Translations under genes and position numbers: made by a program | Notes under the pieces: generated by a model | What the model was told of the DNA's origin: nothing | Seen by the model: the letters and a program-made list of their open reading frames with translations, nothing else | Databases searched by the model: none | Shown: piece after piece, positions 3,001 through 60,988 of the stretch | Numbering within the stretch: the stretch's first letter is position 1 | Layout of the letters: every line of letters begins with the position of its first letter | Assembly: GCA_009841185.1 (NCBI GenBank) | Contig: VXMG01000121.1 | Location: 20,271 to 84,270, forward strand | Reading direction: 5' to 3' | DNA length: 64,000 bases | Origin: Gammaproteobacteria bacterium | Lineage (GTDB): Bacteria; Gemmatimonadota; Gemmatimonadetes; Longimicrobiales; Gaopeijiaceae

Positions 3001-3907
3001 TCCGGGCGACATGTCTCCATTGCCCATGCCCTGGGACACCGAAGTTCTGAAGACTCTGATCGAGCTCTTGGGCGGCCAATACACGCCCTGGCGGCCCGGG
3101 TACTCCGGAATGCTCTCCAGGGCCGAAGAGGATCGGCTGAAGGTGGAAGGTCTGGTAGCGCGTTGGGCAACCACTTTGGCGAACCGCACGGACCGCAAGT
3201 CCTGCGAGGCTCTTCAATCACTTGTCGAAAACCCTGCACTCCAGCCATGGCACTCCACGCTTGGCACTGAGCACGCCGAGCAGGTGGTAGCTCGCCGAAA
3301 CGCCACCTTCTCGGTGCCGGATCTGCTCGCGATTCAGAACACTCTGACCAACGATCGACCCGCCAGTCCCGTGGACCTGGCTGCGCTCGTGGCGGACAGG
3401 CTCGAAATCCTCGCTGCGCAGATCCAGCACGGAAATACGGATGACTGGCGTCAGTACTGGAACGAAGGCAGCAGCAGCTCGTTGCCAAGACCAAAGCACG
3501 AAGATGCGTGCCGGGACGCGCTTCTATCCGATCTACGGCAACTTCTGCCGGATGGCGTCGACGCTCAGCCCGAAGGGCAATACGCCAGGGATAAGCGGGC
3601 GGACATCCGCGTCTCCTTCAACGGCTCCGCCATCCCGGTGGAAATCAAGAAGAACTCCCATCGGAACCTCTGGAGTGCCGTCGCCAGCCAGCTTGTGCGG
3701 CAGTACACGATCGATCCCGACTCGTCCGGCTACGGCATCTATCTCGTGCTATGGTTCGGCCTCGGGAAGATGCCCGTTCCCCCCACCGGTCGCAGTCCAA
3801 AGACGCCGGACGCTCTGCGGGAGCGCCTCGAAGAGCAACTCGAGGGGCCCTACCGGCACAAGGTCACGGTGATCGTGATCGACGTGAGTGGATCGTCCGA
3901 CATCTGA
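2..3907 (+). CDS. STAND/NACHT-like NTPase, 5'-truncated by the window edge. Long helical-repeat middle region and a C-terminal PD-(D/E)xK-like nuclease module.
   Basis: The frame of ORF 146..3907 stays open back to nt 2 (RAVPGS...HAETLFIDGLDEVRAGRPDALRPMDL). 'LFIDGLDE' is a NACHT/STAND Walker-B motif. It is followed by 'LRLSCRAADW', 'LHLEPLRGEDIVRIL' and 'LANPHSLELL', typical of the post-Walker-B and winged-helix part. About 800 aa of L/A/R-rich helical repeats follow. The last ~130 aa carry E (KHEDACRD), D (ADIRVSF), ExK (PVEIKK) and Q (QLVRQY) with restriction-endonuclease-fold spacing. Confidence 0.75.
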   Translation, partial: RAVPGSRAVTARRFTSGSLDQHPEWHAETLFIDGLDEVRAGRPDALRPMDLILDRLGHLGRPNLRLSCRAADWLGRNDLQDIASTAGYEDVRVLHLEPLRGEDIVRILADLGVPDPRGFIREAGERGLGGLLANPHSLELLVKAKGGDEWPRDRRATFVQACRRLAREPNPKHRAAQRSAPMVSLDRIMAAAGHLSALLLLSDKEHVSIDGSEDPDSLWLEDIPVGDHPALLRALKSNLFSVDPDGGFVPPHRQLAEFLGARFLHTRIDSGVPASRVLALMTGEDGVVVTELRGLSAWLAAFDGLSRRCLIRTDPVGIALYGDVQGFRSDKKESLLRAFAERADEIRAWSWPPVALASLIDSHTVRLLHGYLGDEDRGEGRQAVVGLLLSGFAHASGVQPSRTVLEQAVRDVTWQPRVRHLALRALLHHSGSREDGVPSLRALLDDIRDGRVEDRDGELAGTLLSALYPDHVGPDEIWDYLLPRRPSMVGAYILFWSTRLLRKTPGNDVIALIQALLAKGEDFRQQLSDQGFGDVVLALLANALAAAGDDTRVATLYDWLELMDFEEFGAARMRAAGHSEVSGWLAQRPNLQKKLALEGLGRRLRHDDSEVSGEGLYRAWMVRSTIFGAGAPEDFAEWCLTRAVEVAETRLEVALALLEWSRPWHEEHGVSGVSIEDVREATKDVPALHAEVELILAPPREPKKLMLLREEDRAYARERRRKKAGFIAQVRESAPELRQGRCAPGLLHRMAQPYHDFFLRQRVESPLMRVADLLDGDVDLAETAIEGFRKVTERPDLPTLREFIRLAERDRMSYFALPLLAGFAEMPPESVDSLSPVEIARAVGLYYLIPLNVEGHPAWYRRALESHPSAVAEAAIKVSRSRIRARRDCLHLWEFAREPSHRVVAGLTVPSLLRAFPTRCTEPQVAALHDVLLAAVRWQPDGIEEAIRIRAARPGMDVSQEALWLAAGLFLSPEEFLPALVAFVGEGEEVRLRQIVRFLAPGDMSPLPMPWDTEVLKTLIELLGGQYTPWRPGYSGMLSRAEEDRLKVEGLVARWATTLANRTDRKSCEALQSLVENPALQPWHSTLGTEHAEQVVARRNATFSVPDLLAIQNTLTNDRPASPVDLAALVADRLEILAAQIQHGNTDDWRQYWNEGSSSSLPRPKHEDACRDALLSDLRQLLPDGVDAQPEGQYARDKRADIRVSFNGSAIPVEIKKNSHRNLWSAVASQLVRQYTIDPDSSGYGIYLVLWFGLGKMPVPPTGRSPKTPDALRERLEEQLEGPYRHKVTVIVIDVSGSSDI

Positions 3908-9706: not shown

Positions 9707-10837
9707 ATGATCCCGAAAGCCAACGGCCGGATCCCGCGCCGCGTCGATCGACTGCCTCCGTTTCCGGAGGGGTGGTACTTCATCGCGACCCGCGACACCC
9801 TGCTGAAGGAAAAGCTCATCGAGAAGGCCTGGATGGGCGAGCAGATCGTCGCGTGGTGCGACGACGATGGCCGCGTCTGCGTGGCGGACGCGTTCTGCCC
9901 GCACCTGGGCTCGCACCTGGGGCCGACGGCTGGCGGCACCATCCGGGACGGCTGCCTCGTTTGTCCCTTCCACGGCTTCACCTTCGATGCCACCGGTCAG
10001 TGCGTCGCGACGCCCAACGCTCCGGCCCCCAGAGCCGCGAAGCTGCAACTCTACGAGACCCGGGAGATCCTGGGCATGGTCTTCGCCTGGTATGGCGCCG
10101 GCGGGCGGGCGCCGCAGTGGGATCTGCCGGAGGAGCCCCCCACGGGCGCGGACTGGAGCGGGCTGCGTTTCGCCACCATGGGCTTCCGGGGCCATCCCCA
10201 GGAGACGACAGAGAACTCGGTGGACGTCGAGCACCTGGAGTACACGCACGGCTACCGGGATGTGGAGCCGACCGCCTTTTCCATCGACGGCGCCTACCTG
10301 AAGAGCTGCTTCGAGTTCACGAACGTCCGCACCGTCGCGGGGCTGATCGACATCGTGTCCGAGGTATCGGCCGTCACCCACGTCCATGGGCTGGGATTCT
10401 CGTTCGTCGAGGTTCACGAGAAGACGATCGGCATGGACTCCAGGCTGTGGGTGCTCTCGACCCCGGTCGACGGCGAGTTGGTCGAGTTGACGCTCGTCAG
10501 CCAGGCGCGCGAAGTCGCCAGGCCCGGGCGCTACATCGCCGGGCTGGGGTTCCTGCCGAAGAAGCTCCGCAACAGGCTGATGAACCGCATCCTGATCTAC
10601 GAGGAGCGGCGGTTCGTCGCACAGGACGTGGTCATCTGGGAGCGGAAACGCTACCAGTCCCCGCCGCGTCTCTGCCGGGCTGACGGGCCCATCGGCAAGT
10701 ACCGGCTGTATTGCCGTCAGTTCTACTCCGACATAGGTATCAGTAAGACCGCCGGTCCAGCTTCGGATCGTGGGCTGCGCCGCGCGTGGGCGGATCGAAT
10801 TGGATCCGGGCATCTGCCGGAGGGGAACGGGACATGA
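9707..10837 (+). CDS. Rieske [2Fe-2S] non-heme-iron oxygenase, Neverland (cholesterol 7-desaturase)/KshA-like
   Basis: Rieske ligands 'CPHLGSHLG' and 'CPFHGFTF'. Mononuclear iron motif 'ENSVDVEHLEYTH' (D-x2-H-x4-H). Size of about 376 aa is typical of KshA/Neverland-type single-component alpha subunits. Confidence 0.9.
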   Translation: MIPKANGRIPRRVDRLPPFPEGWYFIATRDTLLKEKLIEKAWMGEQIVAWCDDDGRVCVADAFCPHLGSHLGPTAGGTIRDGCLVCPFHGFTFDATGQCVATPNAPAPRAAKLQLYETREILGMVFAWYGAGGRAPQWDLPEEPPTGADWSGLRFATMGFRGHPQETTENSVDVEHLEYTHGYRDVEPTAFSIDGAYLKSCFEFTNVRTVAGLIDIVSEVSAVTHVHGLGFSFVEVHEKTIGMDSRLWVLSTPVDGELVELTLVSQAREVARPGRYIAGLGFLPKKLRNRLMNRILIYEERRFVAQDVVIWERKRYQSPPRLCRADGPIGKYRLYCRQFYSDIGISKTAGPASDRGLRRAWADRIGSGHLPEGNGT

Positions 10838-10934
10838 TGGAACCGCAGCGTATGGTGAACGTACTGATGATGGCGCATCACTTTACGCTCGAGATGGCGC
10901 CGAAGAGCTGAGACGGATTCATCCTCGGAAGACG

Positions 10935-12146
10935 ATGATCCGCCAGCCGCCGTTGCGAGCCGGTTCGGGAGAGGATTTGGAAGTTCCCGGTGCCTACGTC
11001 GAGGGGTACGAGGCCGCCCGCCAGCACGATCCGGAGCTCGCGGAGGCCTACGTCCGCAACACGATGATCGGTGATCCGCTGGCGGATGCCGTCGTCCGGG
11101 ATCTTTCGGACCTGGATCCCGGGGAACTGCACCAGACGCTGGCGCAGGCACTGGACAATCCCCACGCACCGCAGACGGGCGCCCCCGATTCCCTCGTCGA
11201 GTTCGTCGATTACTCCACCGCCGTGCCGGACTGGTTCGACGCCGACATCGCCCGCATGGCCTCGCGCGCCTTTCTGCGCAACTCGGACATCGTTCTCGCG
11301 GCCCTGGTGGGCGGCAGCATCGTCGAGGGGTTCTCCACCCTGATCAGCAAGTCGTTCCGGATCCGGGGACGGGTCACCAACTCGGGCGTGCGGCGCCTCA
11401 AGCAGAACGGGATGCAGCTTGTCGAGCAGTACCTGCCGGGTGGAATGGAGCCCGGGGGGGACGGATGGAGGCTCACCCTGCGCGTCCGGCTGGTGCACGC
11501 CCAGTCCCGATACCTGATCAACCAGTCCGATGAATGGGATCACGACCGGCTGGGAGAACCGATCAGCGCCGCGCACGTGCTCCTGGCCGGGGCGGCCTTC
11601 TCGGGCCGGCTGATGCGGCACGTGGCCACGCTGGGGGGTGACTTCAGCAGGGAGGAGCGGGAGGCCTACATTCACGTCTGGCGCTACACCGGGCTGCTCA
11701 TGGGCATCCCGGAGGATATCATCTTCGACGACGAAGCCTCGGCTTGCCGGGCGTTCGAGATCGGCTCCATGTGCGAACCTCCCGCGGACCTGGACGCGAT
11801 CATCATGGCCAACAGCATCGTGAACAGCGCGCCCGTCATCATCGGTGTCACGGACCCCGCAGAGCGCCGGAAGATGGCCCGCGTCGTGACCCAGGCGTCG
11901 CGGGAGCTGATCGGCGAGGAGCTCGCCGATTCATTCATGTTTCCCACCCGCAGGCGGAAGGTGATCCCCTGGATGCGGATTCAGAACCGGTCCCGGGGCG
12001 TCATCCGCAAGGTGCTTCCCCGCCTGGGGGCGAAGCAGGATCGGGCCCGGTTCGACGCCCTCATGGAGTTCGCCGGCTTCGAGAAGCTGAGGTACTCGTA
12101 CCGGTTGCCGACCGCGCTGCACGACGAGCACTCGTCGGACTGGTAG
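10935..12146 (+). CDS. MpaB/DUF2236-family oxygenase (family related to rubber oxygenase Lcp)
   Basis: Internal ATG at 10935 (MIRQPP...), chosen because the track ORF start overlaps the Rieske gene. 'RLVHAQSRYL' and 'HVWRYTGLLMG' are motifs I associate with DUF2236/MpaB. Confidence 0.7.
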   Translation: MIRQPPLRAGSGEDLEVPGAYVEGYEAARQHDPELAEAYVRNTMIGDPLADAVVRDLSDLDPGELHQTLAQALDNPHAPQTGAPDSLVEFVDYSTAVPDWFDADIARMASRAFLRNSDIVLAALVGGSIVEGFSTLISKSFRIRGRVTNSGVRRLKQNGMQLVEQYLPGGMEPGGDGWRLTLRVRLVHAQSRYLINQSDEWDHDRLGEPISAAHVLLAGAAFSGRLMRHVATLGGDFSREEREAYIHVWRYTGLLMGIPEDIIFDDEASACRAFEIGSMCEPPADLDAIIMANSIVNSAPVIIGVTDPAERRKMARVVTQASRELIGEELADSFMFPTRRRKVIPWMRIQNRSRGVIRKVLPRLGAKQDRARFDALMEFAGFEKLRYSYRLPTALHDEHSSDW

Positions 12147-12179: not shown

Positions 12180-13217
12180 CTAGCCCCCGACTCGCGTGAA
12201 CGTGAACGTTCCGATGGGCGCGTCCGAGAACGGGGTCATGCCGCGGAGGCTGCGGATGGGCCGCTTGGGCGAGGAGTCGGCGTTGGCGGAGGTGTAGGTG
12301 GTTCCGTCGTCGGTGCCCGAGTCGTAGGGATAGAGGGTGACCTGGAGTTCGTCCACCCACTGCCCCAGGTCGTCCATCAGCGACAGCGCGGAAACGCCCA
12401 CGAACCAGTCCGGGCTCGGCGCGATCATGGTGACCAGGGTGACGAGGGGGTAGTTCCCCCGGACGACGACGCGGGAGATGGTCGCGCTGGCCGGGCTGGT
12501 GCCGAGCCCGGGTCCGCTGATGATGGAGAGTGCGTTGGCCGGGAGGTGCGCGCGGATTTCCGACCTGAGCGTGCTGGTCCCGCCCGTTTCGGCCATGCTC
12601 TCGATGCCGGGGGTGGCCGTCTCGCCGCTCGCCCAGAAGCGGACGCCGTCGTCGTGCACCGCCCCGATGAGCGGCGAGAAGTGCGCGCCGCCCGGGTAGT
12701 CGGTCGGGTGGGTGGCGGCGCTCCAGGTGGCGTCGAAGACGACGCTGTAGACGGCCGAGTCCGGCGGGGCGGGGAGCTCCCCCGCGGCCGCACGGATGTC
12801 GGTCGACACTCCCCCGGCCACCGACGCCGTGAGGGTCTGGGCACCGGCCGCATCGCCGAGCGTCCAGGTCGTGGCGGCCAGGCCGGCCGCGTCGGTGGCC
12901 GCGGTCGCGGGGTCGGCGGATCCGTGCCCGGCGGCGGCGGAGAAGGTCACGGTGACGCCCGCGACCGGCGAGCCGCCCGCGTCGTCCACCCGCACCACCA
13001 CGGCCTCGGCGAGCGTGCTGCCCGCCATCCCTTCCTGCCCGCTCCCCGACACGACCACGATGGCCGCGGGGGCGCGTGGCGCCTCTCCGGGCGGTTCGGT
13101 GCCGGAGTCGCCGCCGCAGGCGGCCAGCGCCGCAATGACGGGGATGCTTCCGAGGAGGGCCGGGAGGCCGTGGCTGCGGACGGAGGTCGATGCCCGCCGC
13201 CCGCCCGCATCACCCAA
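12180..13217 (-). CDS. Lipoprotein with a bacterial Ig-like domain and a spondin_N domain
   Basis: Lipobox 'AALAACGG'. Big-like repeat (VVSGSGQ...TVTFSAAAGHGS...TWTLG). C-terminal half 'FDATWSAATHPTDYPGGAHFSPLIGAVH...PSPDWFVGV...YPYDSGTDDG' matches spondin_N. The only in-frame start is TTG, 5 nt after the P450 stop. Confidence 0.75.
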   Translation of the reverse strand: MGDAGGRRASTSVRSHGLPALLGSIPVIAALAACGGDSGTEPPGEAPRAPAAIVVVSGSGQEGMAGSTLAEAVVVRVDDAGGSPVAGVTVTFSAAAGHGSADPATAATDAAGLAATTWTLGDAAGAQTLTASVAGGVSTDIRAAAGELPAPPDSAVYSVVFDATWSAATHPTDYPGGAHFSPLIGAVHDDGVRFWASGETATPGIESMAETGGTSTLRSEIRAHLPANALSIISGPGLGTSPASATISRVVVRGNYPLVTLVTMIAPSPDWFVGVSALSLMDDLGQWVDELQVTLYPYDSGTDDGTTYTSANADSSPKRPIRSLRGMTPFSDAPIGTFTFTRVGG

Positions 13218-13222
13218 CGCGG

Positions 13223-15250
13223 TCAGGACGGCAGCTCACGCACCTGCTCTGCGATGCGGAACTTGAGGTCCTTGCTCGGCTTCATCGACGGAAAGGGGCT
13301 GAATCGAAACTTGTAGTTCGCCGGCGACACCTCGATCGTGAAGTAATGCGCGACCAAAAGGAGGTTGACGCCCAGTTGCAGCTCCATCCACCGGGAGCCG
13401 AGGCACCTGTGTGTGCCCAGGCCATAGGGGGCGTACCCCGGGCTGCGGTGCTCATTGCGGGGATCCTTGTAGCGGTCGATATCGAAGGTGAAGGGGTCCG
13501 GGAAAACATCCTCCATGAAATGCGAGGCCGTCTGGGCGATGGCGACCCGCGTTCCAATCGGTATCTCGTAGTTCTCGACCACCCAGGTGTTCATCACGTT
13601 CCGCATGGACATCGGGACGATCGGGTACAGCCGCAGGCATTCCTTGATGAAACGGCGGGTGACGTCCATCGCGGAAAGGTTGAGGTCGTCGCCACCCGGT
13701 TCTCCGTCTTCGAAGAAGACACCGGCCTCATCCCGGATTCTGGCATAAAGCTCGGGCTGTGACGCCATGGCATAGAGCGCGCAGTTGAATCCATCCCCGA
13801 GATACACGCTGGCAACCAGCGCGGCCGACAGGGCGAACCGCAGATTCGACTCCGGTACGAACTGTGGATCGCTCGCGTGCAGGCTCAGCCAGTCATCGGC
13901 AAGGCTGCGCGGGCAGCCGGCCCGCTGGGCGGGAGTATGGACGCTGTAGACCCGTTCCAGCAACGTCTCCACTGCCTGCGCCCGGCGCTTCATTCCCGGG
14001 GTCTTCAGCATGAACTTGGGAAGGCCGTTCAGGATGTGGACGTTGAGTGCGCGTTCCTTGAACACGATCAGATCGTCGATGATATCCTGCGAATCCACGC
14101 TCAACATGAGAGGAGAGATCTGACTGTTGATCATGCGTCGGCAAAGGCGTCTTGCCGGGTAGGTGTCACCCACCGTCCAATCCGCCATGTATGCACGGGC
14201 CTGACGAAACAACAGGTCTCCCTGTCCTGCCAGCCTCGCGCGCGAGACGCCTGGCGCCATGGACTTGCGAAGCCGGAAGTGGTCTGCGCCATCGAGGGAG
14301 GGCAGGACTCCGGACGCACCATAGACTTTCTCGAAGTCGGCGAAATAGTCCCTGGCTCTCAGATACCTGCGCCCGTGCCGATTAACCCGGCGGTTTGTCC
14401 GCGGTCCGGCGAGGAAGATCATGGGTTGCGAGAACGGCGGCCGGAGCTCGAACACCGGGCCGTACTCCCTGGCCAGATCCGCGACGAGCGCGGGCAGGTT
14501 GCCACTGCGCAGGTGAGGATTCAACAGCAACTTGCGCAGCGGGACACGCGGAATCTGCTTCGCGAGGCGGGACCGCTGAACCACCGGGCCACCGAGGTTG
14601 GTCACCACCGCAGCCGCGATCGAGCGGCCGATCAGGTCCATCCTGCAGATGAGCTCGATGCGCTCGTGAGCCTCGTCGTCCAGTTGGAATATGAAACGAA
14701 AGACATCACACGAGTTCACCAGGCAGATGATGATGATGTCTCTCGGGTCCGGGATTTCCTCGGTGAAGATGACCTTGCCGATGCGCGTCCTGATGAACTG
14801 GCGTGCGGTGCCTTCCTCGGTGTCGCCGTACAGTTCCGTCTGCCAGACCCTGCGAGCCAGGGTCCAGAACTCGCCGTCGTGATGTTGCAGGATCTTGAGT
14901 TCAACCAGGCGGTCCAGCGTCAGATCGATGATCGACTCGGCACGGTGCGCGAGGTGCTCGATCCAGTACTGGGCGTTCCGTTGAACTCGCTCGTCTGCGA
15001 TCTCCTTCAGAATGGGGTCCAGTGCGGGGTCGCCCGTTTCCGTCGCGTCCACCAGGAACAGCGACTCCATGTCCGTGTCGATGCGCGTCAGGAGTGAGAG
15101 TTCCGCGAGCACCGCGCCGATGACGGCGCAATGCAGCCGCCAGCCGGGCACCTGGTGGAAGTAGCCGTTTTCCTCGTTGAGGAGCATCAGGATGAGCTCC
15201 TCGGGCAGCGTCAGCGCCTGGGTGGAGACATTCTCTGTCGCAACAGCCAT
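13223..15250 (-). CDS. GOLPH3/GPP34-like domain fused to a cytochrome P450
   Basis: The N-terminal ~200 aa 'LTLPEELILMLLNEENGYF...' are GPP34-like. The C-terminus has the ExxR motif 'KECLRLYP' and the heme loop 'YGLGTHRCLGSRWME'. Confidence 0.85.
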   Translation of the reverse strand: MAVATENVSTQALTLPEELILMLLNEENGYFHQVPGWRLHCAVIGAVLAELSLLTRIDTDMESLFLVDATETGDPALDPILKEIADERVQRNAQYWIEHLAHRAESIIDLTLDRLVELKILQHHDGEFWTLARRVWQTELYGDTEEGTARQFIRTRIGKVIFTEEIPDPRDIIIICLVNSCDVFRFIFQLDDEAHERIELICRMDLIGRSIAAAVVTNLGGPVVQRSRLAKQIPRVPLRKLLLNPHLRSGNLPALVADLAREYGPVFELRPPFSQPMIFLAGPRTNRRVNRHGRRYLRARDYFADFEKVYGASGVLPSLDGADHFRLRKSMAPGVSRARLAGQGDLLFRQARAYMADWTVGDTYPARRLCRRMINSQISPLMLSVDSQDIIDDLIVFKERALNVHILNGLPKFMLKTPGMKRRAQAVETLLERVYSVHTPAQRAGCPRSLADDWLSLHASDPQFVPESNLRFALSAALVASVYLGDGFNCALYAMASQPELYARIRDEAGVFFEDGEPGGDDLNLSAMDVTRRFIKECLRLYPIVPMSMRNVMNTWVVENYEIPIGTRVAIAQTASHFMEDVFPDPFTFDIDRYKDPRNEHRSPGYAPYGLGTHRCLGSRWMELQLGVNLLLVAHYFTIEVSPANYKFRFSPFPSMKPSKDLKFRIAEQVRELPS

Positions 15251-15627
15251 CAGCGTTGGCCCCTCGTCTCGATACGGGAAGACTGCCTCACCAACCTCGG
15301 CAACCTCATGCTCCGTTTCTCTTCGTCAGACGCCGGGACGGAAGGTTCAGCCCCGTTTCGGCGGTCGCCCAAACCCGAGCTTCCTACAGCTAAGATACAC
15401 CTGAGCATGAGCATAGCTCCACGGGCACGGCTGCGTCAAACGGAATCTGTCGCGAGAAAGCGTCGTTGTGACGCAACACCCGGCGATTCCTCGAGAGCCG
15501 ATCCCTGGATCGCGTTCGCCGGCGGTATCGCGCGCACCGCAGGGTGCCTTGATGGTGCACGGCGAGTACCCAATTAGTATCCTGTCCGTGCGCGTCCCTC
15601 GTCCACACCCAGGCCGATCCAGCACAA

Positions 15628-18600
15628 ATGAGTCGGAACTCAAACAACCACGGCGAACCGGGCGGCCCTATCGCCTATATGGCGAGCAACAGCGTCGCCG
15701 CCAATCTGCTGATGCTCGGGATCATCGCAGCGGGTCTGGTGTCGCTGACCGGTCTCGAGCAGGAGGGATGGCCCGAGGTACCCTTCAACCAGTTCGAGAT
15801 CTCCGTGCCCTTCCCCGGCGCAACCCCCGAGGAGGTGGAGGAGGCCATCGTCGTCAAGATCGAGGACCAGGTCCGGGGACTCGCCGATGTGAAGGCGGTC
15901 AGGTCCATAGCCGCCCCGGGGATGGCGTCCGTCAGGGTTGAAGTCAACTCCGGCACGGACATGGGCGCCAAGAAGGACGAGATCGAGTCGGCGGTCGGGC
16001 GTATTCAGACGTTTCCGGGCGGAGCCGAGCGGCCACAGATACGCGAGATGACCAACGCCCAGAGCATGATTCGCCTGGTCGTCTACGGCGACGTTCCCGA
16101 GCGCTCGCTGAAGGAACTCGCGTACCGGATCGAAGACGAGCTCGCTGCGCTTCCCTCCGTCTCCCAGGTCGCGACCAGCGGAGTGCGCAACTACGAGGTT
16201 TCGATCGAGGTGCCGCTACAGCGTCTCAGGGCTCTCGGCCTGACCCTGACCGATATCGCGAACACGATTCGCCGCAACTCACTGGACCTGTCCGCGGGGA
16301 GCATCGATACGCGGGAGTCCCAGGTGCGGGTGCGCACCCTTGGCCAGAGCTACGACCAGCAGGATTTCGAGGAAATCGTTCTTCTCAGCCGGGACGACGG
16401 CACGGTCGTGCGCCTGGGTGATGTCGCCGAGGTGCGCGACGGTTTCCAGGACTCCGATCTGATCGTGCGGCACCAGGGCCAGCCCGCCGTCTTCGTCGAG
16501 GTATCCCAGGCGGAGGGCGAAAGGGTCATGAGCGTGGCCCGTGCCGTCCAGGAGCATGTGGCGAACGAGGTGGTGCCTTCACTCCCCGGTGGCGTGGGCG
16601 TGACCATCTGGAACGACGATTCCACGGCGTTCTCGGAGCGTGGCGCCCTCCTCCTCAAGAACGGGGCTCTGGGGCTGCTGCTGGTGTTGATCGCGCTGGG
16701 CCTGTTTCTGGAAGTCCGACTGGCCTTCTGGGTAGCCGTCGGCCTTGGCGTTGCGGGGATCGGCGCCCTGGCCGCCATGCTGGTGTTCGACATCCCGATC
16801 CACGCTGTCTCGCTCTTCTCTTTCGTACTCGCCATCGGAATCATCGTGGACGATGCGATCGTCGTGGCCGAACATATTCATCTGGAACGAATGCGAGGGA
16901 CGCCGGGCACCGTCGCCGCAATCCGCGGTGCGCGGCGGATCAAGGTGCCGCTGATCTTCGCGGTGCTCACCACCATCGTTGCGTTCGTCCCCCTGCTCTT
17001 CATTCCCGCAGGGTTCGGAGAAGTCTGGAAGGCGCTGCCCATCATCGTCATCGCCATGCTGGTGATCTCGCTGATCGAATCGCTGCTGGTGCTGCCCAAC
17101 CACCTGTCGCACCATCTGCACGGCCCCGGCTGGGCGCCCCGCACGGGCGCGGAACGGTTCGTCGCGCGCATCCAGGGTCGGGTCGACTCCCTGCTGAACA
17201 GCTTCATACAGGGCCCCCTGGATCACGGGATGCGGTTCGCGACCGATCGACCCGGCGTGACGCTCTCCGCAGCTATCGCTCTCTTCATACTCACCGTCTC
17301 CCTGCTGCCGGCCGGCATCGTGCCGACCACCTTCGCGACCGAGGTCGAGGGAGACTTCGTAACCGCCACCCTTCAGATGCCGGACGGAACCACCGCGCAG
17401 CAGACGGACGCGGTGGCACGGGAACTGGAGGCGGCCGGTCACCGGGTCATCCAGCGTCTTTCCGAGGGCCGGCCCGAAGATGCGGCTCCGCTTCTGTCCG
17501 GCGTTACGGTTGTCGTCGGGCAGCGGTCACGGATCGAGACCGGAGGTCTCAACCCCTCGCCCACGCTGAACCCCGAAGCCAACATCGCCACCATCGAGTT
17601 CAAGCTCCTGCCGGCGCAGCAGCGGCGCATCACTTCGGGAGAAGTCATGCAGGCCTGGCGTGAGGAGGTGGGCATCCTGCCCCATGTGCGCGGGATCACC
17701 TTCATGAGCGAGATCTACACGCTGGGCAACCCGGTGGAAGCCGTGCTGTCCCATCCGGATCCGGAGCGCCTGGTAACGATCGCATCGTCCGTGGTCGATG
17801 AGCTCCGTCGAGTGGGGGGTGTCTTCGACATTCGCTCGGACCACACGCCCGGCATCCCTGAAGTCCAGTTGGGATTGCTGCCCGAAGCACGAACCCTCGG
17901 CCTCACGCTCGACGCGCTTGCCCAGCAGACGAGAGACGCTTTCTTTGGCGCGGAGGCCCTGCGGGTCCAGCGAGGACGCGACGAAGTCCGGGTCTACGTC
18001 CGGCTGCCCGAGGAGCAGCGCAACTCGATCACCGACATCGAGAGCTACCTCGTCCGTACGGCAACCGGCGCCGAGGTGCCGGTGAGCCGTGTGGCTTCAC
18101 TGAGCGCGGCCATGTCGCCGCCGGCCATCCGTCGCCAGGACGGCCAACGCGTTGCCACGGTCACTGCCGATGTAGACGCAAGTGTGATTTCCGCCGGGGA
18201 AGCCAATGGCATTCTGGAGAGCACCATCCTCGCGGGACTGGTCGATACGGACCCTGACCTGACCTACACCTTTGGTGGCGAACAACAGCAGCAGATCGAC
18301 TCTCTGGGTGCGCTCTACCGCGGTTTCGCGATAGCGTTGCTGATTATCTTCGCGCTGCTGGCCATTCCGCTGCGTTCCTATACCAAGCCGTTCATCATCA
18401 TGGCCATCATCCCGTTCGGGTTCGTCGGCGTGATCCTGGGCCACTGGATCCTGGGAGTGGCGGTGAGCGCGGAGTCCTTTGTCGGGATATTCGGCCTGGC
18501 CGGCGTGGTGGTGAACGATTCCCTGGTCATGATGGACTTCATCGATCAGGAACTTGAGGAGGGCCTTCCGGCGCGCGAGGCGATCATCGAGGGGGCCAAG

Positions 18601-18807
18601 GGCCGTTTTCGTCCGATCATGCTGACTTCGCTCACCACCTTCCTCGGCTTTACGCCGCTGATTCTCGAAGACGCAATTCAGGCGCAGTTCTTCGTTCCTT
18701 TCTCCGCCTCGATCGGGTGCGGCATCCTCTTTACCACGGCCATCCTGATGTTCCTGGTGCCCGCGCTTTCCTCGCTGCGCCTGCACTTGACCACCCGGGG
18801 CTCCTAG
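15628..18807 (+). CDS. RND-superfamily efflux permease (AcrB/HAE-like, 12 TM), with no adaptor or OMF gene adjacent
   Basis: 1059 aa. AcrB-like N-terminus 'SNSVAANLLMLGIIAAGL', large periplasmic loops, internally duplicated TM bundles. Confidence 0.95.
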   Translation: MSRNSNNHGEPGGPIAYMASNSVAANLLMLGIIAAGLVSLTGLEQEGWPEVPFNQFEISVPFPGATPEEVEEAIVVKIEDQVRGLADVKAVRSIAAPGMASVRVEVNSGTDMGAKKDEIESAVGRIQTFPGGAERPQIREMTNAQSMIRLVVYGDVPERSLKELAYRIEDELAALPSVSQVATSGVRNYEVSIEVPLQRLRALGLTLTDIANTIRRNSLDLSAGSIDTRESQVRVRTLGQSYDQQDFEEIVLLSRDDGTVVRLGDVAEVRDGFQDSDLIVRHQGQPAVFVEVSQAEGERVMSVARAVQEHVANEVVPSLPGGVGVTIWNDDSTAFSERGALLLKNGALGLLLVLIALGLFLEVRLAFWVAVGLGVAGIGALAAMLVFDIPIHAVSLFSFVLAIGIIVDDAIVVAEHIHLERMRGTPGTVAAIRGARRIKVPLIFAVLTTIVAFVPLLFIPAGFGEVWKALPIIVIAMLVISLIESLLVLPNHLSHHLHGPGWAPRTGAERFVARIQGRVDSLLNSFIQGPLDHGMRFATDRPGVTLSAAIALFILTVSLLPAGIVPTTFATEVEGDFVTATLQMPDGTTAQQTDAVARELEAAGHRVIQRLSEGRPEDAAPLLSGVTVVVGQRSRIETGGLNPSPTLNPEANIATIEFKLLPAQQRRITSGEVMQAWREEVGILPHVRGITFMSEIYTLGNPVEAVLSHPDPERLVTIASSVVDELRRVGGVFDIRSDHTPGIPEVQLGLLPEARTLGLTLDALAQQTRDAFFGAEALRVQRGRDEVRVYVRLPEEQRNSITDIESYLVRTATGAEVPVSRVASLSAAMSPPAIRRQDGQRVATVTADVDASVISAGEANGILESTILAGLVDTDPDLTYTFGGEQQQQIDSLGALYRGFAIALLIIFALLAIPLRSYTKPFIIMAIIPFGFVGVILGHWILGVAVSAESFVGIFGLAGVVVNDSLVMMDFIDQELEEGLPAREAIIEGAKGRFRPIMLTSLTTFLGFTPLILEDAIQAQFFVPFSASIGCGILFTTAILMFLVPALSSLRLHLTTRGS

Positions 18808-19847
18808 CCCTGAAGAGGCTTGCGCGCCAGGAAGCAGTAGAGCGGCGTGAAGATCCCGGTCCTGCCGCCGGCGACATAGGCGTCTGCAGTCCGATCCATA
18901 AGTTCGACAACCTCCGCCGATCCCCTGGGGAACACCCGCAGCAACTCGGCCAGCCTGGATGCCCAGAAAAACATCCTGCGACCCATGGGAGCCTGGACGA
19001 GAGCGCTCCCGAGCCACCCGCGCCGGGCCTCCATGGGCTGATACCACGGCGTGGTCGGACCGGTCTCGTCGACAGCGAGGTCCGTCGCTTCCAGGATTTC
19101 GAATCCGGCGGTTTCGAGGGCCCGGTCTGTCTCCGCGAACGTTGCGATGTCCCGGAGCGCGATGCCGTGCATCAGGTCGCGCTTGATGGCCCGGTGGCGA
19201 TCGTCGTGGGGATTGTACACATCCGTCATGCACATTTCCTGGCCCCAGAAAAGGGCTCCGGGCTTGAGGACACGGTGGATTTCGGCAAACGCGAGTGCCT
19301 TGTCGGGAGCATGGCAGGTCGATTCGATCGCGTAGCCCCGATCGAAGGTCCCGTCCGCGATGGAACTCATATTCATGAAGCTGCAAGCGAGGAAGTCGAT
19401 CATGTGATCGAGCCCCGCCTCGGCATTCAGCGACCTGGCCCTGCTCAACTGGACTTCACTGCTGTTGATTCCCAATACCCGGACGCCGGCCTCGCGGGCG
19501 ACGCGGCGCATTGGACCTCCGATCCCGCAACCGATGTCGGCCACCGTCATGCCCTCGCGCAGTTCCAGCTTGGCGATCATCTGCCGCTGGTGCCGGATCT
19601 TGGAGTCCTTCAGGCTCTCGCCGGGCGACAGCGGCGCAAAATGCAGGGATTCTCCCCAACCGAAGACCATCAATTCGCTACAAAGGTCGTAGTATTCCGT
19701 TGCGGTCCGGGTGTGGTCGTAGTCGGCTGCGCGGCCATCCGCGGCGAACGCTCTGTCCGTCCATCCTTCGAAATTCCGCACGCGGCGGCGGACGTTCGTT
19801 TCGCCGAACGCGGCCTTCAGTCCCCTGGATAGTCGACGCAGATGCAT
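18804..19847 (-). CDS. Sterol C-24 methyltransferase (ERG6/SMT)-type SAM-dependent methyltransferase
   Basis: Collinear with yeast ERG6 as I recall it: 'YYDLCSELMVFGWGESLHFAP' (cf. [20 protein letters not shown]), SAM motif 'DIGCGIGGP', 'YAIESTCHAP' (cf. YAIEATCHAP), and the C-terminal Sterol_MT_C-like 'GIFTPLYCFLARKP' (cf. KLFTPMMLFVARKP). Confidence 0.9.
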   Translation of the reverse strand: MHLRRLSRGLKAAFGETNVRRRVRNFEGWTDRAFAADGRAADYDHTRTATEYYDLCSELMVFGWGESLHFAPLSPGESLKDSKIRHQRQMIAKLELREGMTVADIGCGIGGPMRRVAREAGVRVLGINSSEVQLSRARSLNAEAGLDHMIDFLACSFMNMSSIADGTFDRGYAIESTCHAPDKALAFAEIHRVLKPGALFWGQEMCMTDVYNPHDDRHRAIKRDLMHGIALRDIATFAETDRALETAGFEILEATDLAVDETGPTTPWYQPMEARRGWLGSALVQAPMGRRMFFWASRLAELLRVFPRGSAEVVELMDRTADAYVAGGRTGIFTPLYCFLARKPLQG

Positions 19848-19954: not shown

Positions 19955-20074
19955 ATGGGCAGGCGGCGCAAGGGGCGGCCACAGGAGTCGCCGCTCCATG
20001 TCGGCTATTCCATTCCGCGAGGGGGCGCGTTCCGGTACGTTTCGTGTCCCAACTACCTGGGAGAGCTGCTGGAG
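19955..20074 (+). pseudogene. Relic of a 3-oxo-5-alpha-steroid 4-dehydrogenase (SRD5A/TECR) family gene, C-terminal motif only
   Basis: In-frame upstream extension of the OMP ORF reads RRRKGRPQESPLHVGYSIPRGGAFRYVSCPNYLGELLE. Compare the SRD5A/TECR signature 'LR.LRKPG..GY.IPRGGLFEYVSC(A/P)NY.GE..EW'. An in-frame stop lies immediately upstream, and the motif runs straight into the OMP signal peptide. Confidence 0.4.
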
Positions 20075-20911
20075 ATGACGACTCGACTGGCTCCGGGCGT
20101 TCTGCTGGCCGCCGTGGCGGTTGGCACGATGCTCGGGCGCCCGATGAATGGGTCCGCGCAGGAGCCCGTGAGGGCACCGGCTGCCCCGGCGTCCCGTCCC
20201 CTGACTGCCGATCGCCCCGATTTCACGGAAGCGGCATCCGCCGTGGGCCGGGGCGTCCTCCAGATCGAGTTCGGCTACACGTTCGGCGGAGACTGGTCCG
20301 GCGGCAATTCGGTCCAGACCCATACGCTGGGCGAAATGCTGCTGCGCGCGGGGGTTGCGGCGGACTGGCTGGAACTCCGGGTGGCGGCCAGCCCGGTGAC
20401 CCGCGTGGACACCGAGGGAAGCGGAGCCAGCGACAGTGGGATCGAGGACCTCTACCTGGGCGCCAAGATCGAGTTCACCCGGCAGGCGGGCCGCCTTCCG
20501 GCGCTCGCGGTCCTGCCGCAGATGACGCTGCCCACGGGCAGCACGCTGTTCTCCGGCGGACGCGCGCTGCCGGGCGTGAATCTCGTCTACAGTTGGGATG
20601 CGCCCGGAGGATTCTCCCTGGCGGGCAGCACGCAGGTCAACCTGGCCGTCGCGGATGGCGACGACAGCTACCCCGAGTGGGCCCAGTCGGCGGTCGCGGG
20701 AGCCGGCGTCGGGACGCGCGGAGGCGTGTACGGCGAATGGTATGCGTTTCTGCCCACGGGGGCGGATGCCCCGCAGGAGCATTACTTCAATGCGGGCCTG
20801 ACCTGGCTCACAGCCGACGATTCGCAGTGGGACATCCGGGTCGGCGTCGGGCTGAACGATGCCGCCGAGGACTTCTTCGCGGGCGTGGGGGCGGCCATCA
20901 GGATGCGCTGA
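20075..20911 (+). CDS. Outer-membrane beta-barrel channel, 'MetA-pathway of phenol degradation'-like family
   Basis: Signal peptide MTTRLAPGVLLAAVAVGTMLG...AQE. 'DRPDFTEAASAVGRGVLQIEFGY' matches the N-terminal motif of that family. Alternating beta-strand pattern. Confidence 0.65.
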   Translation: MTTRLAPGVLLAAVAVGTMLGRPMNGSAQEPVRAPAAPASRPLTADRPDFTEAASAVGRGVLQIEFGYTFGGDWSGGNSVQTHTLGEMLLRAGVAADWLELRVAASPVTRVDTEGSGASDSGIEDLYLGAKIEFTRQAGRLPALAVLPQMTLPTGSTLFSGGRALPGVNLVYSWDAPGGFSLAGSTQVNLAVADGDDSYPEWAQSAVAGAGVGTRGGVYGEWYAFLPTGADAPQEHYFNAGLTWLTADDSQWDIRVGVGLNDAAEDFFAGVGAAIRMR

Positions 20912-25387: not shown

Positions 25388-25534
25388 GGCTGGCTCCTGG
25401 GAACGGGCGCCGGTAAGGCGGGATGGCGGAATCGGCTGAAGGTGGCCCACGCGGCGAGGTCGCCGCAACCCGTTTCAGGAACCCGGAACCCTCCGTGACA
25501 TATCTTCTGTGGCGGTGTCGCGCCGGGCGCCGTG

Positions 25535-26629
25535 ATGCAGGATTCCGACGGCGTCGTTCGCAACAGGGGAGATGGCTTGCCGGAGAACTACGATGTGGTG
25601 GTGGCCGGGGCCGGCTTTGCCGGTCTCGCCTGCGCGCGCCAGGCGGCCCGGCGCGGCCTCTCCGTCCTGGTGCTGGAGCGACAGTCCGCACCCGGCGCCC
25701 GCATCCACACCACCGGCATTCTCGTGCATGAGGCCTGGACCGAGTGGCAGGTGCCGGCCCCGCTGGTGAGGCGAATCAACCGGGTCAGGGTCTACACTCC
25801 CGCGCACGACCATATCGAGCTGGAGCGGAACGGATACTTCTTCATGGCCACCGATACCGCCCGGCTCATGCACCATCTGGCCCGGGAGACCCGGCGCGCG
25901 GGTGTCGAGATCCGGTTCGGACAAGGATACCGCGGCGTGACGCCGGGACCGGGTCCATTGCTGCTCCAGGCTTCCGGGGTCACCTGCCGATTCCTCGTTG
26001 GAGCCGATGGTGCGCGCTCCGCAGTGGCCGGGAGCTTCGGCCTCGACCGCAACCGCCGCCTCCTGAAGGGGGTCGAATGGGAATTCGAGCCCGTGGACGG
26101 CGTCGCCGACTGCCTGCACTGCTTCATCGATCCCGAGTTCGCCCCCGGGTACATCGGATGGGTGGTGCCCGGGGTGGCGACGACGCAGGTCGGGCTGGCG
26201 CTGCACCGCGACCGGCAGGCCGACCTGCCGGGGTTCGTCGCAAAGCTCGACCCGCTCTTCGGGCTGTCGCGGAAGACGGTGGTGGAGAAGCGCGGCGGTG
26301 TGATCCCGTGCGGGGGACTGCTTCGCAACTTCTACGGGGAACGGGTGATGCTCATCGGGGACGCCGCCGGGATGGTGTCCCCGCTGACGGCCGGGGGCAT
26401 CCACCATGCCTGGCGGTTCGGCAAGATCGCCGGAGACGCCCTGGCCGACCATCTCGCGGGTGGAACGCATCCCGGTCCGGTGGTGCGGCGCGCATACCCG
26501 AAACTGGTCTGGAAGCACGCCGCGCGCTGGGGCTACGACCGCCTTCCGGTGGCGCGGGCGCTCGAGGCCGGGCTGCTCACCCGGAGCATGTTCCGAAAGG
26601 TGGCGGCGAAGGTCTTCTTCGGGCTGTAG
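25535..26629 (+). CDS. FAD-dependent oxidoreductase, geranylgeranyl-reductase-like
   Basis: 'YDVVVAGAGFAGLACA' dinucleotide-binding motif and 'GDAAGMVSPLTAGGIHHA'. A GTG at 25532 is an alternative start. Confidence 0.85.
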   Translation: MQDSDGVVRNRGDGLPENYDVVVAGAGFAGLACARQAARRGLSVLVLERQSAPGARIHTTGILVHEAWTEWQVPAPLVRRINRVRVYTPAHDHIELERNGYFFMATDTARLMHHLARETRRAGVEIRFGQGYRGVTPGPGPLLLQASGVTCRFLVGADGARSAVAGSFGLDRNRRLLKGVEWEFEPVDGVADCLHCFIDPEFAPGYIGWVVPGVATTQVGLALHRDRQADLPGFVAKLDPLFGLSRKTVVEKRGGVIPCGGLLRNFYGERVMLIGDAAGMVSPLTAGGIHHAWRFGKIAGDALADHLAGGTHPGPVVRRAYPKLVWKHAARWGYDRLPVARALEAGLLTRSMFRKVAAKVFFGL

Positions 26630-38600: not shown

Positions 38601-39091
38601 TAGCCCACCGAGCGCTGGCCGTTGTTCTCGCCCGTACCCACCCAGAGGGTGAGGTGGTCGTTCGGGTCGAGCGCGATGGCCCCGATGGAATACGAGCCGT
38701 AGTCGTCGAAGATGGGCGTCCAGGTGGTCCCTGCGTTCGTGGTTTTCCAGACGTTCCCGGATGAGGCCGCCACGTACCAGGTGCTGCGATCGGTCGGGTC
38801 GATGGCGATGTCGGCGATGCGGCCCGATGCGACGGCGGGGCCGATGCTCCGCCACCTGAACGACGAGAGCAGGCCGGAGTTGAGTTCCGCCGGGGCGTCC
38901 TCGTCGGACTCCTGGGCATGGAGCCCGCCGGGCAGGCCCCCCGCCGTGGACGCCGGCGGGAGCAGTGCCGCAAGCAGAACCAGAGCCGACGGCGCCGGGA
39001 TGCGGCGGAATAAGACGCAACCGAAGTGCGAGAAGGCCTGACGGCCGGAGTACGAGAACGCATGACGGGTTCGGAGACGGAGGTCGTACAT
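35696..39091 (-). CDS. Secreted BNR/sortilin (VPS10)-repeat beta-propeller protein
   Basis: Internal ATG (MYDLRL...) of the 1602-aa track ORF. Repeated 'S.DGG.TW' BNR motifs (TNAGTTW, VDGGRSF, RDGGESW, TDGGETW, DDGGETW, EDGGETW, VDGGESW). Confidence 0.85.
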   Translation of the reverse strand: MYDLRLRTRHAFSYSGRQAFSHFGCVLFRRIPAPSALVLLAALLPPASTAGGLPGGLHAQESDEDAPAELNSGLLSSFRWRSIGPAVASGRIADIAIDPTDRSTWYVAASSGNVWKTTNAGTTWTPIFDDYGSYSIGAIALDPNDHLTLWVGTGENNGQRSVGYGDGVYKSVDGGRSFANMGLETSEHIGMIAVHPDDSRTVFVAAQGPLWNAGGERGLYRTRDGGESWELVLEIDEHTGVNEVYFDPRNPDVMYASSWQRRRHQWTMIDGGPGSGIHKSTDGGETWRAINRGLPSGDKGRIGMAISPINPDVLYAIVEASGNDGGTFRSENMGENWSRTSRYQSTAPMYYHELYADPHRFDRIYAMDTFLEMSDDGGETWSRLPTQSVHVDHHAIAFDPDDPEHLILGNDGGLYETFDFGENWSHFTNLPLTQYYKVATSNDEPFYYVYGGTQDNNTMGGPSQTLGGGIRNSDWYVTLGGDGFDPVIDPENPDIIYSQLQHGVLSRFDRGSKERLDIQPQADPGGPPLRWYWDAGLIMSPHDNHRLYFGAQILFRSDDQGSSWRAISGDLSRNLDRNQLEVMGRVWSVDAVGKNRSTSVFGHIVAISESPLVEGLIYVGTDDGLVQVTEDGGETWREIASLPGVPDTSFVHDVEASLHDPDAVFAVVNNFKRGDYRPYVLKSEDRGRNWTAITGGLPDNSPSFSIVQDHIESDLLFLGAEFGAFVSVDGGESWMEFDSGLPTIAVRDLEIQQREGDLVAATFGRSFYVIDDYTPLRELARGPEPILASAGHLFEVADGDMYVPWNPGGANGADFYAADNPELGVTFTYWVGETLRTRRAERQAEERRAAGRGEDTPYPSWEELIEEDREEAPRVYLTVRDEGGQVVNVVNGSTSRGVHRAVWNYRYPAYTPVTGGGGGGFGGFGGGNGPMALPGSYTVSLAQRVDGEVKELAGPAPFEIAPLTKPAIAAQDRAVVLAFQRETGELLRAVTGSQRAAAGAAQRIGAVKQALEGWPAAPAALMGDARALELRLLDLREALDGSRTRTSRAEPDLPGIAGRVNQVVRGHWNGTHGPTGTHREQYRVAREAFSAMYPELQRLVETDLPALEGRLEEAGVPWTTGRALPSWPPGG

Positions 39092-39202
39092 CGTGTGTTC
39101 CTCGGGGCGGTAGTGTGCAGGGACGGAAAGAGTGTAGACGGGGGACGCCTCGACCGCCAAGTTGCCGGAACAGCATCCGTCTTCGACCAGGGATCGTGAA
39201 TC

Positions 39203-60934: not shown

Positions 60935-60988
60935 AACTCACTCCAGCGACTCCTCCATCGCAACTCACCCCAGGGACTCTTCCATCGC
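60935..60988. repeat. 27-bp tandem repeat x2 spanning the HNH gene stop codon
   Basis: aactcactccagcgactcctccatcgc / aactcaccccagggactcttccatcgc, 24 of 27 identical. The second copy encodes the C-terminal residues of the HNH protein. Confidence 0.8.

Follow-up and report, generated by a model that had tools for sequence, protein, structure and literature searches.

Introduction

Side-chain-alkylated steranes, in particular 24-isopropylcholestane and 26-methylstigmastane, serve as the oldest chemical evidence for animals, and the organisms and enzymes that made their precursors are under debate. [quoted passage not shown] SMT1/ERG6 genes are enriched in metagenome-assembled genomes (MAGs) of Ircinia symbionts, often scattered around the chromosome, and clusters of oxidosqualene cyclase (OSC), CYP51 and ERG24 genes were found in 115 of 537 sponge-symbiont MAGs (Kelly et al., 2022, PMC9531527). 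In a separate line of work, a 2025 study reported that a fusion of a GPP34 domain with a cytochrome P450 domain (GPP34_L) occurs exclusively in sponge symbionts, across many phyla and in 92.6% of the Gemmatimonadota symbiont genomes examined, and proposed that it modulates host phagocytosis through phosphatidylinositol 4-phosphate (PI4P) binding (PMC11706023). Here we analyse an SMT-family gene located in a stretch of 64,000 nucleotides (hereafter the window; assembly GCA_009841185.1, contig VXMG01000121.1, positions 20,271 to 84,270), the product of which (MYD00169.1) is named in GenBank only 'methyltransferase domain-containing protein' and comes from a MAG labelled Gammaproteobacteria. The gene is of a kind already known from sponge symbionts; it is set apart by the pocket signature of its lineage, which departs from that of all experimentally active SMTs, and by its linkage to a GPP34-P450 gene, which joins two separate literatures.

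The window protein resembles the assayed bacterial SMTs (PMC10070321; bioRxiv 10.64898/2025.12.19.695621) in family, in domain architecture and in its level of identity to ERG6 (34-42%), and shares with them an origin in demosponge microbiomes (Aplysina aerophoba and others) and a relevance to sterane biomarkers. It differs from them in sequence and in gene context: the active enzymes keep T78, F89 and L341 and usually Y81 or F81, whereas the window protein has S78, M81, L89, I249 and M341, and many of the assayed enzymes are encoded in clusters with OSC, CYP51, ERG24 and SdmAB, whereas the window gene is accompanied by those of a GPP34-P450 fusion, an RND pump and a Rieske oxygenase.

A full-length member of the SMT family

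The open reading frame (ORF) encodes 347 amino acid residues and contains all three motifs quoted in a preliminary description of this DNA, namely GWGESLHFAP (aa 63-72), YAIESTCHAP (aa 172-181) and the C-terminal tail GIFTPLYCFLARKP (aa 331-344). Comparison with four close orthologs gave dN/dS values of 0.16-0.30, which indicates purifying selection; the ORF is intact and selectively maintained. The Pfam profile Sterol_MT_C (PF08498) matched aa 287-344 with an E value of 4.1e-15 and 56.1 bits, well over its gathering cutoff of 21.7 (profile positions 8-65 of 66), alongside class I methyltransferase domains (Methyltransf_11, 62 bits), and the S-adenosylmethionine (SAM)-binding motif of Region II, DxGxGxxGP, reads DIGCGIGGP, as in the class I fold. 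Residues 9-344 are collinear with residues 27-368 of yeast ERG6 (34% identity, E=1e-68), and a cluster named rice cycloartenol-C-24-methyltransferase 1-like (P0172) aligned end to end (41% identity, E=8e-73). In the ERG6 sequence on which the yeast residue numbering used here rests, each of the 25 published motif residues stands at the position reported for it, and an end-to-end comparison gave 56% identity with a database cluster named Cladosporium 'Sterol 24-C-methyltransferase erg6'. With yeast ERG6 and plant SMT1 the window protein is collinear from end to end, and it has Regions II-IV, the catalytic residues H90 and E195 and the C-terminal SMT domain in common with them; unlike them it is bacterial, has no N-terminal extension and carries aliphatic instead of aromatic residues at positions 81 and 89 of Region I.

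An exhaustive HMMER search over 1.84 billion cluster representatives (50%-identity clusters) returned 264 clusters at E<=1e-30. Among solved structures, the best matches outside the SMTs in a PDB sequence search were methyltransferases of the RebM/MitM type (E=4.5e-22), followed by cyclopropane synthases (about 1e-6 to 1e-17); no true SMT structure was among the matches. No NCBIfam model reached its cutoff, the best being sarcosine/dimethylglycine N-methyltransferase (74 bits, cutoff 550). In a neighbour-joining tree the window protein nests inside the SMT family. Because Sterol_MT_C was matched above threshold and the eukaryotic SMTs matched far more strongly than other methyltransferases, the window protein is an SMT-family member and a real bacterial relative of ERG6. 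The preliminary description, which had presented it as a full-length, ERG6-collinear homolog with an SMT-specific C-terminal domain, was right in this, and the Sterol_MT_C search it had proposed came out clearly significant. The outcome it had named as contrary, placement among cyclopropane-fatty-acid or tocopherol methyltransferases, was not seen, given E values of about 1e-68 to 1e-73 for eukaryotic SMTs and 1e-22 for the best non-SMT structures. Of the name it had used, sterol 24-C-methyltransferase, the part concerning the family stands, while activity at C-24 should not be taken as given, since three of the 25 residues common to functional SMTs are altered.

A distinct lineage with a remodelled side-chain pocket

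Brown and Welander (bioRxiv 10.64898/2025.12.19.695621) identified 25 residues common to every SMT for which their assays with desmosterol or 24-methylenecholesterol showed activity; they also reported that Gly249 is needed for propylation and located residues 81 and 249 no more than 5 Angstroms from the docked sterol side chain. In an alignment of 118 members of the window clade, 108 representatives of the whole family and ERG6, the window protein was found to retain 22 of these 25 residues, the deviations being T78S, F89L and L341M. Met81 and Leu89 are found in all 118 clade members, and position 249 is Ile in 117 of them and Val in the remaining one; the canonical residues at positions 81, 89 and 249 are Tyr, Phe and Asn, Asp or Gly, and the wider family has Tyr81 in 87, Phe89 in 90 and Asn or Asp249 in 72 of the 108 representatives. 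By contrast with this altered pocket, D125, G127, G129, P133, E195, G217 and W286 are invariant throughout the clade and H90 is present in 117 of 118 members. Region I of the window protein reads M-V-F-GWGESLHF, with neither the aromatic residue at position 81 nor the consensus GWGxxFHF; the stretch GWGESLHFAP, previously cited as a conserved substrate-region motif, is in fact a departure from that consensus. The signature of propylating SMTs, Gly249 combined with Phe81 and/or Phe83, is likewise absent, the protein having I249 and M81, with Phe at position 83.

In the neighbour-joining tree the clade forms, together with the deep branches P0166, P0168 and P0169, a single long-stemmed lineage; all three deep branches have Leu89 and two of them Met81. 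The sister group (P0170 and P0223) carries canonical residues. Its member P0170, from the acidimicrobiian 'Ca. Poriferisocius', is named in NCBI 'sterol 24-C-methyltransferase family protein' and is encoded on a contig beside genes for a P450, a PhyH protein and a TetR regulator. The split between the clade and the canonical SMTs was recovered in 58 of 60 neighbour-joining bootstraps after the six signature columns had been removed. The window protein is a member of a distinct SMT lineage, in which aliphatic residues line the sterol side-chain pocket.

Distribution among sponge-associated bacteria

A word-indexed search found 1963 proteins at E<=1e-10, and a query from the window lineage had relatives in 463 GTDB species representatives, the best 80 of which are at least 69% identical. 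These best 80 are MAGs, many of them with sponge-project bin names and one from a coral. Relatives from Gemmatimonadota/Longimicrobiales show 85-97% identity, and those at 69-76% include members of Dehalococcoidia/Chloroflexota, Rhodospirillaceae, Acidimicrobiales, Binatia, Bryobacterales, Terriglobia, Rhodothermales and Thermodesulfobacteriota. Many members of the lineage come from Aplysina aerophoba MAGs; it is also present in symbionts of Ircinia, Petrosia, Sarcotragus, Rhopaloeides and a coral. Across Chloroflexota, Gemmatimonadota, Alphaproteobacteria, Acidobacteriota and other groups the proteins are about 70% identical, which argues for horizontal spread. The lineage is found mainly in sponge-associated bacteria, appears to be shared horizontally among them, and seems to be among the most widespread SMT-like lineages of sponge microbiomes. 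The earlier remark that bacterial SMTs are rare does not stand against the 1963 proteins found, the GTDB species with relatives (at least 463) and the 264 clusters, nor against the sponge-symbiont SMTs that have already been assayed (PMC10070321).

Conserved gene linkage and a proposed module

Locus analysis was carried out on the best 80 of the 463 matched GTDB stretches by clustering the flanking ORFs, and counts refer to the 68 of these loci whose sequence extends at least 6 kb beyond the methyltransferase gene in both directions. A GPP34-P450 fusion is encoded within 6 kb of the methyltransferase in 46 of these loci and a KshA-like Rieske oxygenase, within the same distance, in 39; a transporter of the RND superfamily is present in 46 (MMPL/sterol-sensing-domain (SSD) type in 37, AcrB type in nine), an amine-oxidase-type enzyme dependent on flavin adenine dinucleotide (FAD) in 26, and an ERG4/ERG24 reductase in three. 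Among all 80 loci, the AcrB type was seen in 16 and the MMPL/SSD type in 42. The MMPL neighbour, of about 825 aa, stands immediately upstream of the methyltransferase gene on the same strand, with a median of 23.5 bp from its stop to the methyltransferase start, and the methyltransferase stop lies a median of 40 bp from the convergent P450 stop. Partner proteins are about 64-75% identical across phyla, which, together with the tight spacing, is consistent with a horizontally spreading module. The MMPL neighbour of the 42 loci matches the models of the hopanoid transporter HpnN (7e-32), the bacterial sterol transporter BstA (3e-9), Patched (1e-11) and the Sterol-sensing domain (1e-12) shared with eukaryotic NPC1; all these matches are far below the equivalog cutoffs, and the window pump is of the AcrB type instead.

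Two observations on the loci may be added. In a subset of the Chloroflexota loci, an ERG4/ERG24-family sterol reductase gene (141 bits, L039:17475-18614; also in L025, L027, L036, L052 and L022) is located a few kb downstream of the block of SMT, GPP34-P450, Rieske and FAD-oxidase genes. In the window itself (13223..19847 compared with L001-L013), the RND and SMT proteins are 91-95% identical to those of Longimicrobiales/Gemmatimonadota MAGs, while the P450 gene there is inverted and its product only about 75% identical; the loci with full synteny are labelled Gammaproteobacteria in three MAGs and Gemmatimonadetes in one. This is mosaic evolution accompanied by conflicting taxon labels.

The linkage was also tested reciprocally, and free of SMT ascertainment, by scanning an alignment of 22 GPP34-P450 proteins (A1) against JGI/GenBank metagenome contigs. 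All 60 true GPP34-P450 relatives that were found are on contigs with sponge-metagenome accession prefixes, of which Ga0209021, LXNJ and LXNI were confirmed as Aplysina, Petrosia and Sarcotragus projects, while MKWU, the other Ga0209xxx and JGI prefixes are ones that we take to be Aplysina metagenomes. Where at least 1.5 kb was available on both sides, a clade-type SMT lay within 400 bp of the fusion gene in 15 of 35 loci and within about 6.3 kb in 20 of 35. M81 and L89 are carried by 25 of the 30 SMT-like ORFs in these loci, and I249 is present wherever that position was covered. The linkage of SMT and GPP34-P450 genes is strong but not obligatory, since a nearby clade SMT is held by 20 of the 35 loci.

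Comparison of the module with described systems

With both domains in one polypeptide, and in a sponge-associated bacterium, the window fusion has exactly the architecture of GPP34_L, and it comes from the same MAG collections (PMC11706023). In the window family, however, the fusion is linked to an SMT-like gene, an SSD pump and a KshA-like oxygenase, whereas the role proposed in that paper is in phagocytosis; the linkage points to lipid or sterol chemistry. The words 'sterol' and 'methyltransf' are absent from the GPP34_L paper (PMC11706023), and in PMC10070321 transporters are not mentioned in the main text nor P450 in the supplements. No report of a linkage between SMT, GPP34-P450, Rieske and RND genes was found in the open-access full-text literature, where it appears to be unreported so far. 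The ERG24-CYP51-OSC clusters (PMC9531527) come from the same hosts and phyla, but their gene content differs from that of the module, and the 64 kb of the window hold none of the three core genes.

The P450 domain has CYP51 enzymes as its closest solved relatives (E=5e-22), followed by other sterol-acting P450s. Its assignment as a CYP51 was nevertheless rejected, as the I-helix motif A-G-(Q/H)-H-T-S is absent (ASVYLG in place of AGHHTS of 6mi0) and the conserved threonine is missing. The conserved acid/threonine pair of the I-helix is thus replaced around aa 480-486 (ASVYLGD, compared with AGHHTS in the Methylococcus CYP51), and this replacement is invariant in the 22 fusion proteins; the sequence hints at an atypical activation of oxygen or at peroxide-type chemistry.

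Predicted activity and alternative explanations

The reading that we hold most likely, with moderate confidence, is that the window protein belongs to a distinct lineage of sponge symbionts, is active as a sterol side-chain methyltransferase that adds a single methyl group, and works in a sterol-tailoring and transport module. SAM would be bound through DxGxGxxGP, with H90 and E195 retained, and its methyl group would be transferred to a double bond of the sterol side chain, giving a carbocation that is then deprotonated, as in canonical SMT chemistry. Most probably one methyl group would be added, yielding 24-methyl or 24-methylene (C28-type) products in preference to ethyl or isopropyl ones. 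As judged from gene linkage, the enzyme would act within the conserved module and not in a de novo cyclase cluster; the GPP34-P450 fusion and the KshA-like Rieske enzyme may modify the same lipid, and an RND-superfamily pump, of AcrB type in the window and of MMPL/SSD type in most phyla, would move the sterol across the envelope. The sterol may be of host or of bacterial origin: an exclusively host-derived substrate was dropped as a firm assumption because OSC-CYP51-ERG24 clusters occur in symbiont MAGs of the same phyla (PMC9531527).

The single methylation is predicted from three residues. In a reference propylating SMT, G249I and other bulky substitutions at position 249 left C28 products while C29 and C30 products were lost (bioRxiv 10.64898/2025.12.19.695621). 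As cited in the same preprint from Nes et al., replacement of Region I aromatic residues by leucine in soybean SMT1 blocked the second methylation, and of the Y81 substitutions tested in ERG6, Y81F alone gave ethyl products. Since I249, L89 and M81 all point in one direction, a single methyl addition is expected if Delta24 sterols are the substrate; ethyl or isopropyl products from the window enzyme are unlikely, and it should, if it acts on such sterols, be a poor candidate source of 24-isopropyl sterols. A widespread lineage is thus predicted, by published residue criteria, to give no ethyl or isopropyl products, and possibly does not accept any of the standard substrates. If such genes are scored as 'SMT/ERG6' in metagenomes, as by KEGG-type annotation, the bacterial potential for biomarker production could be overstated. 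The linkage also offers a testable biochemical hypothesis for GPP34-P450, one of the clearest genomic hallmarks of sponge symbiosis, and points to host-symbiont sterol trafficking via RND/SSD pumps.

Several observations weigh against an active single-methyl C-24 enzyme in such a module. Every functional SMT of the published set keeps T78, F89 and L341, and its authors take deviations at the 25 positions as possible signs of an inactive enzyme or of a requirement for another substrate (bioRxiv 10.64898/2025.12.19.695621). No member of the window lineage could be traced, or is known to be active, among the published assayed SMTs, for which the supplements give gene identifiers without sequences; the single assayed SMT that was located in such a module (contig LXNJ01000389.1, locus L119) has canonical Y81/F89/G249 and is 40% identical to the window protein. 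In two loci on sponge-metagenome contigs (L085 and L124, 12065-14988 in each), a clade SMT with M81/L89/I249 adjoins a canonical SMT, complete in the 25 functional residues and with F81/F83/G249, the signature published for propylation, and the pair lies beside a GPP34-P450 gene; this suggests that the two types are not redundant, and the clade enzyme may do something other than plain C-24 methylation. About half of the GPP34-P450 loci are without an SMT, no ferredoxin or reductase that could serve the two oxygenases as redox partner was seen nearby, and none of OSC, squalene epoxidase, CYP51, ERG4/24 reductase and SdmAB is encoded among the major ORFs of the 64-kb window, in which the KshA/SdmA-like Rieske protein is the sole element related to a de novo sterol cluster, although the pathway may be encoded elsewhere in the genome. 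Finally, the tree is a neighbour-joining tree only.

A different job for an enzyme of the same family is the main alternative, possible but on present evidence rather doubtful. The remodelled pocket would then redirect methylation to another carbon or another substrate: C-26 or C-27 in Delta25 sterols, for example (epi)codisterol, with 26-methyl sterols of the aplysterol type as products, a sterol already oxidised by the neighbouring P450 or Rieske enzyme, or a triterpenoid other than a steroid, for instance squalene or a hopanoid. Squalene is methylated by SMT-like triterpene methyltransferases in Botryococcus braunii, and the MMPL neighbour matches the hopanoid transporter HpnN better than the sterol transporter BstA. 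The invariance of M81, L89 and I/V249 in all 118 clade members, at positions reported to lie close to the docked side chain (81, 249) or to belong to the sterol-binding Region I, argues for such a specialisation, as do the separation of the lineage from canonical SMTs even without its signature columns, the F81/F83/G249 enzyme adjoining a clade SMT in the two loci just described, and the retention of F89, T78 and L341 in all published active SMTs. Against it, the catalytic and SAM-binding residues and the architecture are those of a C-24 SMT, and the three substitutions are conservative ones that, made singly in other SMTs, let C-24 mono-methylation survive.

The most specific version, which we regard as speculative and unlikely, is that the M81/L89/I249 lineage consists of sterol side-chain methyltransferases with a new regiochemistry or substrate preference and, as the prime case, supplies the missing C-26 methyltransferase that makes aplysterol-type sterols and the sterol precursors of 26-methylstigmastane from Delta25 intermediates. 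The many lineage members from MAGs of Aplysina aerophoba speak for it, as aplysterol, a 26-methyl sterol, is the principal sterol of that sponge and is formed by a methyltransferase yet to be identified (PMC10070321), whereas the occurrence of the lineage in symbionts of Ircinia, Petrosia, Sarcotragus, Rhopaloeides and a coral, not all of them hosts known for 26-methyl sterols, speaks against it. Were C-26 methylation the true activity, GPP34-P450 would belong to a system by which symbionts take up host sterols, oxidise and methylate them and export them again, and some of the 'sponge' biomarker sterols would owe their structure to bacterial tailoring.

It is very improbable that the gene encodes an inactive or decaying SMT paralog, that is, a pseudoenzyme or sterol-binding protein kept beside the other genes. 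Three of the 25 active-SMT residues are altered, seven of the 11 inactive SMTs of the published set carry at least one such deviation (bioRxiv 10.64898/2025.12.19.695621), and an adjacent Steroid_dh-like relic (see below) attests to gene decay at the locus; yet the dN/dS values, the full-length ORF kept in hundreds of genomes of many phyla, the operon-like spacing with the neighbours, and a SAM-binding motif, H90, E195 and W286 that are invariant or nearly so all argue against it. The deviating residues are moreover themselves conserved (89 invariant, 78 and 341 limited to a few residues), the opposite of drift.

A generic class I methyltransferase unrelated to sterols (of cyclopropane-fatty-acid synthase, tocopherol, sarcosine/dimethylglycine or natural-product type) that resembles ERG6 by chance is the least credible explanation and is effectively refuted already, for although the uninformative GenBank name, the uniformly sub-threshold NCBIfam matches and the RebM/MitM-type nearest structures (from a PDB match set holding no true SMT) would suit it, it is contradicted by the strong Sterol_MT_C match, by end-to-end alignments with ERG6 and a plant SMT1-like protein many orders of magnitude better than those with other methyltransferases, by the nested position in the tree and by sterol-type domains among the neighbours (SSD, KshA_C, CYP51-like, ERG4/24).

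Organization of the locus and other genes of the window

The coordinates of the methyltransferase gene and its neighbours are collected in Table 1. The stop codon of the RND gene is the TAG at 18805-18807 and that of the methyltransferase the reverse complement of 18804-18806, so that the 4-nt overlap of the convergent genes noted in the preliminary description is real by sequence; its statement that no terminator separates them also agrees with our analysis, in which no terminator-like hairpin was predicted at the junction. An identical CTAG overlap was seen in eight of 12 related loci where an AcrB-type RND gene is convergent with the methyltransferase gene, among them that of a Terriglobia MAG; it is a minor feature of gene packing. 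Next to the pump gene of the window no adaptor or dedicated outer-membrane factor was recognised.

Table 1. Coordinates of the methyltransferase gene and neighbouring features in the window
Feature	Coordinates	Strand	Evidence and remarks
Rieske [2Fe-2S] oxygenase with KshA-type (3-ketosteroid 9-alpha-hydroxylase) C-terminal domain, 376 aa	9707..10837	+	Pfam KshA_C 82 bits, Rieske 58 bits
MpaB/Lcp-type oxygenase	10770..12146	+	Pfam MPAB_Lcp_cat 62 bits; true start probably near 10914
Protein with Spondin_N and bacterial Ig-like domain (eukaryote-like)	12180..13217	-	Pfam Spondin_N 164 bits
GPP34-cytochrome P450 fusion ('GPP34_L'), 675 aa, MYD00167.1	13223..15250	-	Pfam GPP34 101 bits (aa 15-215), p450 118 bits
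AcrB-type RND inner-membrane permease, 1059 aa, MYD00168.1	15628..18807	+	Pfam ACR_tran 518 bits; NCBIfam RND_permease_2; convergent with the methyltransferase
SMT-family (ERG6-like) SAM-dependent C-methyltransferase, 347 aa, MYD00169.1	18804..19847	-	ATG start; M81/L89/I249 lineage
CTAG common to the two convergent stop codons	18804..18807	.	RND TAG on plus strand, methyltransferase TAG on minus strand
Steroid_dh (steroid 5-alpha-reductase)-like fragment, 28 residues, PRGGAFRYVSCPNYLGELLE...	19991..20074	+	PF02544, E=3.7e-7, 30.7 bits, profile positions 69-96 of 150

The Rieske protein has a weak NCBIfam match to SdmA (4-beta-methylsterol monooxygenase) and is 57% identical to its Chloroflexota ortholog. 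An alternative identification of this widely conserved neighbour of about 360 aa as an MpaB/Lcp oxygenase was rejected, both Pfam and NCBIfam placing it with the Rieske/KshA type. A true gene of the MpaB/Lcp family, which is isoprenoid-cleaving, and the Spondin_N gene are inserted between the Rieske oxygenase and GPP34-P450 genes in the sub-lineage of the window only. Homologs of the MpaB/Lcp protein, aligned from aa 49, were found only in L001, L008 and L011, the same three loci to which synteny of the Spondin_N gene is limited, and it is uncertain whether these two genes belong to the module.

In the divergent intergenic region upstream of the methyltransferase gene, about 145 bp from its start, the Steroid_dh fragment lies within a 5' extension of the ORF of an outer-membrane protein (19955..20911), directly upstream of the signal peptide of this MetA-type protein. 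It is common only to the closest relatives (L011, L008, L002 and L006) and is a probable relic of a steroid-reductase-like gene. An isoprenoid-type enzyme, a flavoprotein of the geranylgeranyl-reductase family, is encoded 5.7 kb from the methyltransferase gene (25532..26629, plus strand; TIGR02032, 149.9 bits against a cutoff of 158.8); its gene, too, is syntenic only in the closest relatives.

Elsewhere, the window contains an ORF of 1253 aa with no Pfam match (146..3907, plus strand), a 1602-aa Sortilin/BNR-repeat protein (35696..40504, minus strand) and a DUF222-HNH endonuclease (60965..62593, minus strand). It also encodes three TonB-dependent receptors with CarboxypepD_reg N-terminal domains, an architecture more typical of Gemmatimonadota and the FCB (Fibrobacterota, Chlorobiota and Bacteroidota) group than of Gammaproteobacteria.

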